Numbered from the stretch's first letter, positions 28,411 through 31,614 are shown. The stretch: DNA of 64,000 bases from Alphaproteobacteria bacterium (GCA_039808985.1 JBDHUC010000007.1:5128-69127), one strand, 5' to 3'. Numbers and translations: made by a program. The notes: a model not told the origin generated them from the letters alone.

Positions 28411-28899
28411 ATGCTGGATACTAACGAACCAAAATTCTGGGTGGCTCTTGCATTCGTGCTTTTTGTTTCACTGCTTGCAAAAAAAATATCTGTAATTCTA
28501 TTTTCAGTACTCGACAAACGTACCGATAAAATAAAATCTGAACTTGCGGAAGCTGCAGCAATACGCGCTGAGGCTGAAGAAACCCTCGCCCTTTATAAAC
28601 AAAAACAAGCTGAATTTGCGCGTGAAGCCGAGAATATTCTGGCCAAGGCCCGTTCAGATGCTGAAACCAACAACTCAAAAGCACAGCAGGAACTTAAAGC
28701 CGCGATGGATGCAAGGCTTAAGCAGGCGGTTGAAAAAATTGCGCAGGAAGAAGCTGCCGCCATATCTGATATACGCAACCATATAGTTGATATTGCACTT
28801 AATTCAGCTCGTGCTATAATAGTTGGACAAACGAATAACTTATCCCAAGATGAGCTGATAAAAATTGCGATCTCCGATATTGAACGTAAAATCCACTGA
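28411..28899 (+). CDS. atpF: F0F1 ATP synthase subunit b
   Basis: N-terminal TM helix plus an Ala/Glu/Lys-rich coiled coil. Confidence 0.88.
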   Translation: MLDTNEPKFWVALAFVLFVSLLAKKISVILFSVLDKRTDKIKSELAEAAAIRAEAEETLALYKQKQAEFAREAENILAKARSDAETNNSKAQQELKAAMDARLKQAVEKIAQEEAAAISDIRNHIVDIALNSARAIIVGQTNNLSQDELIKIAISDIERKIH

Positions 28900-29734
28900 T
28901 AAATTATATTTTGGCAATAGGGCTGCCAAACTGCTTCTCACACTCCTTGTATTTCATATTCCGGCGCATGCCTATGCTGGTGCGTGGACGCAAAATAAAG
29001 ATAAAGGGCAATTGATAACCAACTTGTCTTATTATTCGAGCAATGAATATTTTGATAATTCAGGAAAAAAACGAAAAGCCAGCAATTACAGCAAATACGA
29101 GCTTAACCCATATTTTGAATATGGGGTTCGCGACTGGCTTACAGTAGGCGCAAATATTTTTGCGCAAAGAGCTTCGCAATATAATAGTGGTTTAGGAAGG
29201 AAACAAACCAATTGGGGCATTGGGGATAGCGAGTTATTTTTCCGCACTCGCCTGTGGCACAACAAGGATTTTATAATTTCCGCCGAACCGATGCTTAAAT
29301 TACCAGGCATGGAAAGCCATAAAGAGCAGCCGCAAATAGGCAATCCTAATTATGATACTGGCTTAACTATGTCAGGGGGATATAGTTTTAAAGCCTTGCA
29401 GCTTGATCATTTTATAAATCTTGATGCGGGTTATCGTCACCGCTTTGGCTCGCCAGCAGACCAGCTTAAATTTGCGGCAACTGCTGGGATATCAGTTACA
29501 AACCGCATCAGGATACTTACGCAATTCTTCAGGACAGCGCGGCTTTCAAATACAAACAATCCGGTATTTACCCAGGCTTCAAGCGACGATTATGATCTAA
29601 GTAAATTGCAGCTTTCTGCCGTCTACCAGACAGACAACAAACTATCGTTTCAAATTGGCGCATACAATAATATCGCTGGCCGCAATACAGGTAGCGGCGA
29701 CGGGGCATTACTTGCGGTCAGCAAAGAATTTTAA
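28865..29734 (+). CDS. outer-membrane beta-barrel protein, partner of the downstream glycosyltransferase
   Basis: No ATG; TTG start at 28865 or 28880, inside the atpF 3' end. Signal peptide ...LLLTLLVFHIPAHAYA/GAW. Alternating aromatic and hydrophilic strands. C-terminal ...SKEF. The TAA stop overlaps the next ATG. Confidence 0.7.
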   Translation: MRSPILNVKSTDKLYFGNRAAKLLLTLLVFHIPAHAYAGAWTQNKDKGQLITNLSYYSSNEYFDNSGKKRKASNYSKYELNPYFEYGVRDWLTVGANIFAQRASQYNSGLGRKQTNWGIGDSELFFRTRLWHNKDFIISAEPMLKLPGMESHKEQPQIGNPNYDTGLTMSGGYSFKALQLDHFINLDAGYRHRFGSPADQLKFAATAGISVTNRIRILTQFFRTARLSNTNNPVFTQASSDDYDLSKLQLSAVYQTDNKLSFQIGAYNNIAGRNTGSGDGALLAVSKEF

Positions 29735-31614
29735 TGGATCCGCTGGGGAAGATACTCAGGGCACGCGGGCTTGTTTCTGAATCACAATTATCATACTTGC
29801 TGGAGGCTCAGAAACATTCCGGCAGCAGGCTTGGTGAAATAATAATATCTGAAGGCATACTAACTTATCTTGAACTATACAGGGCGATTGCCGAGCATTA
29901 CGAGCTTGAATTCATAAACCTTCTGGAAGAACCTCCAGATGAAAAACTGCTTACATGTATAAATGCTGTTGAGTATCTTCATTTTCAGGCAATACCATGG
30001 AAATTCAAGGATAATAAAATAATCGTAGCAATATCCGAATATTGCGATGAAACAATAAAATGGCTTTATGAAAGATATTCCGATAATTTTGAACTGGTTG
30101 CAACATCTCCCCTTGATATAAGAAAAACCGTAGAACGAATTTTCGGCGAATTCCTTGAGAAGGATAGCAAGCTTAGGCTATGGGAACAAAATCCCGACAT
30201 ATCTGCGCGTGTCACAGCATCAGGATTAACAAAACAAATTATTTATATTTCTATAATTTCAGCGCTGGCCCTGGCGGTTATGTTTCCAAGGCAAAGCAGC
30301 AGCTTATTTATATCGTTTTGCAGCATTTTATATTTTGTAAGCATCATAGTAAAAATGTATATTTTTTGTGTTGGCTGTAAACCGCAAGAAAAAACGAACT
30401 GGCCGCAACTGATTTCTGAATATGATGATGCAAGCCTCCCGGTATATACCGTGCTTATCCCCATGTATAACGAAGTTGCAAGCCTGCCAAATATGCTAGC
30501 TGCCATGCAGAATATGGATTACCCGAAGGAAAAACTGGATATAAAGCTAATATTGGAAGAAGATGATATTGAAACCATAAATGCTGCTATCGCCTTAAAA
30601 CCCAGACATAATTTTGAAATAATCCGCGTTCCATATAGTACACTTCGCACAAAGCCAAAAGCCTGTAATTATGCCCTGCGTTTTGCAAAGGGTGAATATG
30701 TAACGGTTTTTGACGCTGATGATATACCAGAAAGCCTGCAACTTAAAAAAGCCGTAACGATGTTCCGCAGCATCCCAGATAGCATAATCTGCCTGCAAGC
30801 CCGGCTTAATTACTATAATGCTGACACTAACTGGCTTACGCATTCCTTTTCGCTGGAATATAGCGCATTATTTAACATAATGCTGCGTGGCCTTGAGCGC
30901 CTTGGCGTCCCCTTGCCCTTGGGTGGCACCAGTAACCACATCTCCCTTGCCCATTTGCGTGATCTGGGCGAGTGGGACGCTTATAATGTGACCGAAGATG
31001 CTGATCTGGGCGTCAGGCTCGGCGCGCAGGGGTTTAAGACTGCATTATTAGATTCATACACAATGGAAGAAGCACCGGTTATGGTTTCTGCGTGGATTCG
31101 CCAGCGCTCCCGGTGGATAAAAGGCTATATGCAGACATGGCTTGTCCATATGCGCAATCCTTTCAGGCTATACAAAAAGCTTGGCTTTAAAAGCTTCTGC
31201 GGCTTTCAATTTTTCATTGGTTTTTCAAGCTTTACCTTCCTGACTGCTCCGATACTCTGGGCATTTGTCCTGTTATACTGGATTTTACCGCCATATTTAT
31301 CGGCACAGTGGCTGCCTTCATGGCTTCTATGGCTAAGCCTTAATAATTTTTTCCTGAATATTATAATACATTGGGTAATGATGTTATATTGTGTTTCAAG
31401 GAAGAAGAATCCTACTTATCAATATAAAATCGCAGCATTATTTTACCCGTTTTATTTAACTCTGCATTCAATAGCAAGCTACAAGGCGCTTTATCAACTT
31501 ATTGTAAAACCTCATTTTTGGGAAAAAACCACACATGGGGTTTCACAAGCATTAAAAAATGAAGGGCAAGTACCTAATTTTGCAACAAATATAGTATTGA
31601 CTGCCCGGTATTAA
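29734..31614 (+). CDS. membrane-bound processive family-2 glycosyltransferase with N-terminal MshEN (T2SSE_N) c-di-GMP-binding domain
   Basis: Tandem 24-residue MshEN motifs at residues 3-26 and 32-55. GT-A core VLIPMYNE and VFDADD. Processivity motif QRSRW. Two TM helices before the catalytic domain and several after it. Confidence 0.85.
   Translation: MDPLGKILRARGLVSESQLSYLLEAQKHSGSRLGEIIISEGILTYLELYRAIAEHYELEFINLLEEPPDEKLLTCINAVEYLHFQAIPWKFKDNKIIVAISEYCDETIKWLYERYSDNFELVATSPLDIRKTVERIFGEFLEKDSKLRLWEQNPDISARVTASGLTKQIIYISIISALALAVMFPRQSSSLFISFCSILYFVSIIVKMYIFCVGCKPQEKTNWPQLISEYDDASLPVYTVLIPMYNEVASLPNMLAAMQNMDYPKEKLDIKLILEEDDIETINAAIALKPRHNFEIIRVPYSTLRTKPKACNYALRFAKGEYVTVFDADDIPESLQLKKAVTMFRSIPDSIICLQARLNYYNADTNWLTHSFSLEYSALFNIMLRGLERLGVPLPLGGTSNHISLAHLRDLGEWDAYNVTEDADLGVRLGAQGFKTALLDSYTMEEAPVMVSAWIRQRSRWIKGYMQTWLVHMRNPFRLYKKLGFKSFCGFQFFIGFSSFTFLTAPILWAFVLLYWILPPYLSAQWLPSWLLWLSLNNFFLNIIIHWVMMLYCVSRKKNPTYQYKIAALFYPFYLTLHSIASYKALYQLIVKPHFWEKTTHGVSQALKNEGQVPNFATNIVLTARY

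Follow-up and report, generated by a model that had tools for sequence, protein, structure and literature searches.

A two-gene locus of the XagA/XagB family within the ATP synthase F0–rpmJ block of an alphaproteobacterial genome, a predicted c-di-GMP-responsive exopolysaccharide system

A stretch of 64,000 nucleotides from Alphaproteobacteria bacterium (GCA_039808985.1 JBDHUC010000007.1:5128-69127; hereafter the window, numbered from its first nucleotide) carries, directly behind the genes of the ATP synthase F0 sector, two overlapping genes whose products, judged by sequence homology, almost certainly belong to the XagA/XagB family known from Xanthomonas. We consider it likely that the two genes form a two-gene Xag exopolysaccharide system, in which XagB would act as a synthase gated by cyclic diguanylate (c-di-GMP) and XagA as the exit pore. 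The Xag system is among the few c-di-GMP-linked exopolysaccharide systems without a known polymer, biochemistry or structure, and the present locus is a reduced and differently embedded version of it. As the locus remains a relative of a known, biochemically uncharacterised system, its value is that of a lead and not of a discovery. What is new is that about 30 alphaproteobacterial metagenome-assembled genomes carry the xag pair reduced to two genes inside a conserved atp–rpmJ block. The two genes are:

28880-29734, plus strand: xagA-like gene, encoding a predicted outer-membrane β-barrel; start codon TTG at 28880, alternatively TTG at 28865
29734-31614, plus strand: xagB-like gene, encoding a predicted MshEN-GT2 processive synthase of 626 residues; its ATG overlaps the xagA stop codon

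The first-pass annotation of this DNA had described an open reading frame of 289 codons that lacks an ATG, has its TTG starts inside atpF and ends in a TAATG overlap with the following gene, and all of this was confirmed in the sequence. The 289-codon frame spans 28865-29734, and the TTG codons at 28865 and 28880, which lie 35 and 20 nucleotides inside atpF, respectively, are the only in-frame ATG, GTG or TTG codons before the signal-peptide cleavage site. At 29732-29736, the TAA of xagA (29732-29734) and the ATG of xagB (29734-29736) share a single A.

The kinship with Xanthomonas is supported by several lines of comparison. In IMG, relatives of the two proteins are named “protein XagA” and “glycosyltransferase XagB”, the latter name being found on relatives that are 66% identical to the window protein. 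In Xanthomonas, as described for X. campestris, the xagABC(D) genes direct the synthesis of an uncharacterised polysaccharide that is needed for biofilm, and their repression by Clp is relieved by c-di-GMP (PMC3528676). In X. oryzae pv. oryzicola, an rpfG mutant has raised biofilm, which drops when either xagA or xagB is deleted (PMC3609779). XCC0678 of X. campestris was listed in 2016 as a predicted c-di-GMP-binding MshEN protein, with the label NfrB-like and the domain placed at residues 14-92 (PMC5013675 supplement); it is, as we infer, XagB. The XCC0678 fragment aligns with residues 4-73 of the window XagB with an identity of 33% and an E value of 7e-15, the PPDxxLL motif included.

The published XCC0678 fragment retrieved only fragments when used as a protein query; a metagenomic contig of the Xanthomonas type, termed L054, was used instead. 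The N-terminal piece of its xagB is 97% identical to the published fragment. In L054, a gene for a 344-residue protein without a Pfam family is followed by an MshEN-GT2 gene and then by a gene for a multi-pass membrane protein. The 344-residue protein aligns with the window XagA over the full length, with an identity of 27%, an E value of 1e-23 and an hhalign probability of 99.8%, and the two proteins have in common the mature N-terminus AGAWTQ and a terminal Phe. The GT2 reading frame of L054 matches the glycosyltransferase and transmembrane parts of the window XagB with an identity of 52% and an E value of 2e-135. The L054 xagB (1904-3811) is interrupted by one in-frame stop, at codon 129, between the MshEN and GT2 parts, which could mark a pseudogene or a sequencing error. 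In addition, xagA is reported to be pseudogenised in X. fuscans 4834-R (PMC3826837), so that the xag cluster may often decay.

Comparison of the window locus against the Xanthomonas cluster showed the same order of xagA followed by xagB, and an N-terminal MshEN domain with PPDxxLL in both XagB proteins. However, the locus differs from that of Xanthomonas in several respects. The Xanthomonas cluster continues with xagC and xagD, whereas in the window xagB is followed by rpmJ and a convergent protease gene; a partial XagC of the Xanthomonas type, used as a query, found no match in the window. The Xanthomonas operon has its own promoter, whereas the window pair, which starts inside atpF, lacks a separate promoter region. 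Finally, the window XagA is about 60 residues shorter than the Xanthomonas-type XagA and has shorter loops.

On these grounds, the earlier view that no characterised system has such a layout had to be given up, as the pair falls into the XagA/XagB family with the gene order and homology of Xanthomonas. The structural calls of the first-pass annotation stood, its claim to novelty did not, and it had overlooked rpmJ directly 3′ of xagB. It is very improbable that the pair is an entirely novel type of minimal, c-di-GMP-gated synthesis and export system without any characterised counterpart. Such a reading would draw on the facts that both proteins fall short of the curated thresholds for BcsA, PgaC and NfrB, and that XagA has no Pfam family and the locus no partner with tetratricopeptide repeats (TPR). 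Nevertheless, homology and gene order are common to the pair and the Xanthomonas xag cluster, which has been studied genetically (PMC3609779, PMC3528676), and the MshEN-GT2 fusion of XCC0678 has been catalogued since 2016.

On the evidence of its motifs and predicted fold, XagB is a GT2 synthase of the processive, channel-forming type that carries an MshEN domain at its N-terminus. Its predicted parts are:

29740-29895, plus strand: c-di-GMP motifs, XagB residues 3-54; NCBIfam NF053729, 48.5 bits against a cut-off of 38
29899-30150, plus strand: C-terminal subdomain of MshEN, residues 56-139; Pfam PF05157, E value 1.2e-7, 32 bits against a cut-off of 23.1
30223-30375, plus strand: two putative N-terminal transmembrane helices, residues 164-214; helices 164-183 and 185-214 in the AlphaFold2 model
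30445-31125, plus strand: GT-A core, residues 238-464, with PMYNE, EEDD, DAD, TED and QRSRW
31186-31506, plus strand: C-terminal transmembrane helices, residues 485-591, the presumed polymer channel; helices 485-517, 529-556 and 571-591 in the AlphaFold2 model

The order of MshEN, two transmembrane helices, GT-A core, QRSRW and C-terminal transmembrane helices, which had been read from the 626-residue protein beforehand, was borne out by Pfam, NCBIfam and AlphaFold2, with significant profile matches to both MshEN and GT2. Residues 238-523 are matched by three overlapping Pfam GT2 families, with E values of 2.5e-20 to 1.8e-13. The motifs are located at residues 275-278 (EEDD), 327-329 (DAD), 420-422 (TED) and 457-461 (QRSRW, nucleotides 31102-31116). 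In an alignment of 35 relatives, the residues of these four motifs are invariant, among them Asp327, Thr420, Glu421, Asp422, Gln457, Arg458, Arg460 and Trp461, except for Asp277, Asp329 and Ser459, which are nearly so; Asp330 is also invariant. BcsA is the best sequence match among proteins of solved structure, with an E value of 3e-17, and the VLIPMYNE/PMYNE, EEDD, VFDADD, TED and QRSRW motifs of XagB fall on the catalytic motifs of cellulose synthase in that alignment.

The AlphaFold2 model of XagB, with a mean predicted local distance difference test score (pLDDT) of 88.7 and a predicted template modelling score (pTM) of 0.87, shows a glycosyltransferase core that is preceded by two long helices and followed by three or four more. 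Structural similarity search using Foldseek placed BcsA, viral and vertebrate hyaluronan synthases and chitin synthases at the top. Residues 164-214 are assigned as transmembrane because this architecture matches that of hyaluronan synthase and BcsA. At least ~8000 proteins match XagB, a number that includes generic GT2 enzymes; together with the 2567 clusters of barrel relatives described below, this indicates that both genes are real and not chance reading frames.

Despite these similarities, XagB could not be assigned to any of three characterised families that were tried. Against the BcsA models, it scored 94.8 bits with TIGR03030 (cut-off 699) and 63.8 bits with NF008558 (cut-off 992), and PilZ was not found in it. 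The PgaC/IcaA model TIGR03937 gave 53.2 bits against a cut-off of 422.3. The NfrB model NF008411 gave 30.5 bits against 1170, from the MshEN part only, and the domain order is reversed.

Compared to the cellulose system, XagB has DD, DAD, TED and QxxRW in common with BcsA, and PLGGTS at the place of the FFCGS of BcsA, whereas it lacks a PilZ domain; no BcsB was found in the window, and the system has neither a TPR protein nor a 16-stranded BcsC. Class I hyaluronan synthases (Chlorella virus, and HAS1 of Xenopus) superimpose on the XagB core with a target-relative TM-score of 0.56-0.60 over ~450 residues and a root-mean-square deviation of about 6 Å. They are single-subunit synthase-translocases; however, their identity with XagB is only 13-16%, and they have neither an MshEN domain nor an outer-membrane partner. 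In the NfrB-NfrA-YbcH system of E. coli, for which the polymer of NfrB was unknown until recently, adjacent genes overlap as they do here. By contrast, NfrB is arranged as GT2, transmembrane part and MshEN, whereas the window XagB is arranged as MshEN, transmembrane part, GT2 and transmembrane part. NfrA is a large protein of TPR plus barrel, whereas XagA is a bare barrel of ~250 residues, and the window locus has no YbcH-like gene.

A further feature of XagB is the stretch KPHFWEKTTHG at residues 592-603 (31507-31542), located just past the last predicted transmembrane helix on the cytoplasmic side. It is near-invariant in the 35 relatives, with Pro593, Trp596, Lys598, Thr599, His601 and Gly602 standing out. 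To our knowledge, it has no recognised counterpart in BcsA or the hyaluronan synthases.

The N-terminal MshEN domain of XagB contains a complete c-di-GMP motif of 53 residues by sequence, from which a receptor role is predicted. The tandem 24-residue motifs, as read by eye, are PLGKILRARGLVSESQLSYLLEAQ and RLGEIIISEGILTYLELYRAIAEH, separated by the five-residue spacer KHSGS. Two 24-residue repeats with a five-residue spacer are the definition of the c-di-GMP motif given by Wang et al. in 2016 (PMC5013675). Owing to the variability of position 7, a strict regular expression for the MshEN motifs failed on motif I of the window protein and of many relatives; it was replaced by the NCBIfam model and the alignment. 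Among the 35 aligned relatives, Gly5, Leu8, Arg32 and Gly34 are invariant and Gln26 is nearly so, suggesting selection on the ligand site of XagB. In addition, ~107 of the 120 closest XagB relatives have a precomputed Pfam match to MshEN. The MshEN domain of NfrB binds c-di-GMP, and this binding is needed for the function of NfrB (PMC8669469).

XagA is predicted to be a small outer-membrane β-barrel without TPR or periplasmic domain, preceded by a signal peptide:

28880-28978, plus strand: predicted signal peptide of XagA, with cleavage between AYA and GAW; the mature protein begins at 28979

In an alignment of 32 XagA relatives, the AYA/GAWTQ cleavage site and the C-terminal Phe are kept. Conserved loops of XagA span residues 137-159 and 230-238. 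The AlphaFold2 model of XagA, with a mean pLDDT of 86 and a pTM of 0.80, is all-β from residue 43 to the end, so that the mature protein of ~250 residues is wholly barrel in the model. Foldseek matched it to the 12-stranded COG4313 channel of P. putida (PDB 4rl8), with a TM-score of 0.71-0.75 and a probability of 1.00 for outer-membrane barrels, and to the 12-stranded transporter FapF, with a TM-score of about 0.62-0.70. The barrel called by the first-pass annotation thus agrees with both model and structural search, and the number of strands is probably 12. Compared to XagA, COG4313 and FapF have a similar barrel size, but the identity is 10-16% and the genomic partners and presumed cargo differ; the relation to COG4313 looks distant and would not go beyond a common clan.

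XagA itself gave no match in Pfam or NCBIfam. Of 32 relatives, 4 gave weak Pfam matches, with a best E value of 2.5e-4; the families matched by relatives were Phenol_MetA_deg, KdgM and OmpG. No TPR was found with Pfam in XagA or its relatives, and the block contains no gene for a TPR partner, in line with the earlier statement that the locus lacks a TPR or periplasmic scaffold; none was found among the block genes. As a bare small barrel, XagA departs from the TPR-plus-barrel exporters that define other synthase-dependent systems, such as BcsC, PgaA, NfrA, PelB and AlgK/AlgE. Sixty relatives were found by a word-index search, and in a profile search over 1.84 billion representative proteins 2567 clusters passed E ≤ 1e-3 and 1485 the stricter E ≤ 1e-10, so that the family is sizeable although neither Pfam nor NCBIfam has a model for it. 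The barrel family thus reaches beyond Xanthomonas, with about 1500 clusters at the stricter threshold and at least five phyla.

A distant, lone XagA-like barrel, which IMG also names XagA, is encoded at 10001-10816 of locus L001, with an identity of 34% and no xagB beside it. Wza-like (Poly_export) and Wzz genes are found no more than about 3-5 kb away, beyond adk, secY and bacA. From this locus, the XagA barrel family may serve more than one polysaccharide pathway.

Instead of a secreted polymer, XagB might make a periplasmic or membrane-bound glycan or glycolipid, of the kind of an osmoregulated glucan or a glycosyl-diacylglycerol, and XagA might be a small-molecule uptake channel of the COG4313, KdgM or OmpG type that is linked to it by gene order only. 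The COG4313 channel as best structural match of XagA and the weak Phenol_MetA_deg and KdgM matches fit this explanation, as do the solitary XagA-like gene of L001 and the finding of no periplasmic scaffold in the window. However, KdgM, NanC and other 12-stranded barrels are conduits for linear oligosaccharides, and such a barrel could therefore let one glycan chain through. The QxxRW and TED motifs and the transmembrane channel architecture of XagB are those of processive, polymer-translocating synthases, and xagA and xagB are paired, overlapping or tightly spaced, in at least five phyla. An XagB-like protein of iron-oxidising bacteria has been automatically annotated as a monoglucosyl-diacylglycerol synthase (PMC4643136), but deletion of xagA has the same effect on Xanthomonas biofilm as deletion of xagB (PMC3609779). 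Taken together, we regard this explanation as quite improbable.

The first-pass annotation had staked its reading beforehand on the two genes being co-localised in other genomes. When one genome per species was scanned, 51 loci were obtained, the closest contig being CAUJHR010000011.1 (Pseudomonadota, metagenome-assembled), and xagA is adjacent to xagB in 46 of them. The adjacent pairs come from Alphaproteobacteria, Acidobacteriota, Nitrospirota, Desulfobacterota, Rokubacteria and Gammaproteobacteria, the last with one genome. Across the loci, the identities of XagA and XagB are correlated with each other (Spearman 0.88) and with that of AtpB (0.67 for XagA and 0.76 for XagB), and this tracking of AtpB fits vertical inheritance.

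The position behind the F0 genes is also kept. In 30 loci, all from alphaproteobacterial metagenome-assembled genomes, most of which are labelled Rickettsiales, atpF lies directly 5′ of xagA. The rpmJ gene follows xagB in 23 loci, with an L36 protein that is 100% identical in 12 of these 23, and 19 loci have both atpF and rpmJ in place. The order dciA-dsbA-atpI-B-E-F′-F-xagA-xagB-rpmJ is maintained down to about 31% XagA identity (loci L002-L034). In most loci with a placeable xagA start, the distance from the atpF stop to this start is 0-85 nucleotides, or the two genes overlap. Such a conserved atp F0–rpmJ position is unusual for a biofilm function; it may point to a core role of the pair in the envelope of this little-known clade.

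The loci of other phyla contain further genes. In Desulfobacterota (L037, L044, L050, L051 and L052), the order is a 470-residue protein without a known family, a 700-residue BcsB-like protein, xagA, xagB and a GT-C-like (PMT_2) membrane protein of 500-560 residues. In Acidobacteriota (L038 and L039), a protein of ~700 residues is encoded 5′ of xagA, with a BcsB match in L038, the only one of the two that was scanned. The BcsB-like gene next to xagA in these two phyla is a point of likeness to the cellulose system. Neither the window nor the alphaproteobacterial loci have partners of the Desulfobacterota or Acidobacteriota type; in searches of the window for BcsB-like, GT-C-like, 470-residue and XagC-like partners, nothing scored better than an E value of 0.26. 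As side observations, a hybrid histidine kinase of 1240 residues is encoded upstream in L050 and L052, and the 562-residue reading frame after xagB in L038 has no Pfam match.

We propose that XagB, in the inner membrane, would polymerise a nucleotide-sugar at the cytoplasmic face, and that the growing chain would be threaded through a channel formed by the transmembrane helices of XagB itself, as its motifs and fold suggest. Binding of c-di-GMP to the N-terminal MshEN domain would switch XagB on, a step suggested by the motif and by analogy with NfrB. XagA would be the exit pore of the chain in the outer membrane, because the pairing is conserved, the genes overlap and the phenotypes of xagA and xagB match in Xanthomonas. 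The product would be a secreted polymer. In this alphaproteobacterial lineage, the pair would most likely be transcribed with atpIBEF′F and perhaps with rpmJ, in which case its control would be mainly post-translational. The two-gene alphaproteobacterial form would make a convenient model for the passage of a glycan across the periplasm without a scaffold.

Several observations weigh against this c-di-GMP-gated synthase and exit pore. COG4313, the closest solved relative of XagA, probably serves the uptake of hydrophobic compounds and not export. A search for GGDEF, EAL and HD-GYP motifs gave nothing credible in the 64-kb window, nor in the related loci. In seven loci, a gap of 160-290 nucleotides between atpF and xagA leaves room for an independent promoter. 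The BcsB-like and GT-C-like partners in other phyla, together with XagC and XagD in Xanthomonas, suggest that two genes may not suffice. Moreover, the first residue of motif I in XagB is Pro instead of Arg, and its position 7 is Arg instead of a hydrophobic residue; Pro at the start of motif I is allowed by the published relaxed motif, and NfrB also has Pro there (PMC5013675 supplement).

Some of these points would suit a different explanation, in which XagA and XagB make a constitutive housekeeping glycan, a core envelope polysaccharide expressed together with ATP synthase and L36, and MshEN, having lost its c-di-GMP sensing, is in this clade only a structural or oligomerisation module. The pair sits between housekeeping genes in 19-30 species-level genomes, and the correlation of XagA and XagB with AtpB suggests vertical, core-like inheritance; the departure of motif I from the strict consensus and the finding of no c-di-GMP enzymes in the window point the same way. 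By contrast, the NCBIfam model of the c-di-GMP motif scores above its curated cut-off, the five conserved residues of the motif persist in the 35 relatives, and MshEN is matched in most of the closest ones. NfrB, whose motif I likewise opens with Pro-Leu-Gly, does bind c-di-GMP (PMC8669469; PMC5013675 supplement). We therefore hold an unregulated glycan to be unlikely, and prefer the c-di-GMP-gated pair.

A bolder version of the preferred reading is that the bare two-protein machine, consisting of the c-di-GMP-sensing synthase and the probably 12-stranded barrel and lacking TPR, BcsB-like and any other periplasmic parts, suffices for the synthesis and export of a surface polysaccharide across this lineage, which is known from metagenomes only, as a core function hard-wired into the atp F0–rpmJ transcription unit. 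This version is conceivable, though we rather doubt it. If true, no simpler synthase-dependent secretion system would be known from any two-membrane bacterium, and matrix production would be tied to the expression of energy and ribosome genes and controlled only after translation.

The genes around the pair, and a putative promoter, are as follows:

26465-26493, plus strand: promoter-like site upstream of atpI; TTGACA, 17-nucleotide spacer, TAAATT, 10 of 12 matches to the consensus
26521-26841, plus strand: atpI, ATP synthase gene 1 protein; Pfam ATPase_gene1, E value 1.7e-13
26838-27587, plus strand: atpB, F0 subunit a; Pfam ATP-synt_A, E value 2.4e-63
27634-27885, plus strand: atpE, F0 subunit c; Pfam ATP-synt_C, E value 1e-12
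27908-28405, plus strand: atpF′, F0 subunit b′; Pfam ATP-synt_B, E value 2.3e-16
28411-28899, plus strand: atpF, F0 subunit b; Pfam ATP-synt_B, E value 2.3e-20; the xagA start codon lies inside its last 20-35 nucleotides
31657-31782, plus strand: rpmJ, ribosomal protein L36 of 41 residues; Pfam Ribosomal_L36, E value 1.7e-19

Co-transcription of xagA and xagB with the atp F0 genes is plausible from the sequence, because the only xagA starts lie inside atpF, no terminator-like site was found on the plus strand between atpF and xagA, and the arrangement is kept in 30 genomes. The site at 26465-26493, the best promoter-like site, might drive all the same-strand genes of the block; it is a match to the consensus only, and such sites are no commoner in the region than in shuffled sequence. 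A second promoter-like match at 28865-28892 on the plus strand, within the last 35 nucleotides of atpF (TTGCGA, 16-nucleotide spacer, TAAAAT; 9 of 12 matches), is probably due to chance, because a transcript from there would miss both TTG starts of xagA. The search for terminators 3′ of xagB or rpmJ gave weak palindromes only.

The window was scanned over its full length against Rfam, c-di-GMP riboswitches included, without a match, and no tRNA genes were found in it. Upstream of atpI, Pfam identified genes for DciA and a DsbA-like thioredoxin on the same strand, and the block from dciA to rpmJ spans 25149-31782 on the plus strand. The rpmJ gene lies 42 nucleotides 3′ of xagB on the same strand and, with 41 codons, was too short for the list of open reading frames. 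On its 3′ side, the block is met by the convergent genes of a trypsin-like protease and motB on the minus strand, both identified by Pfam.

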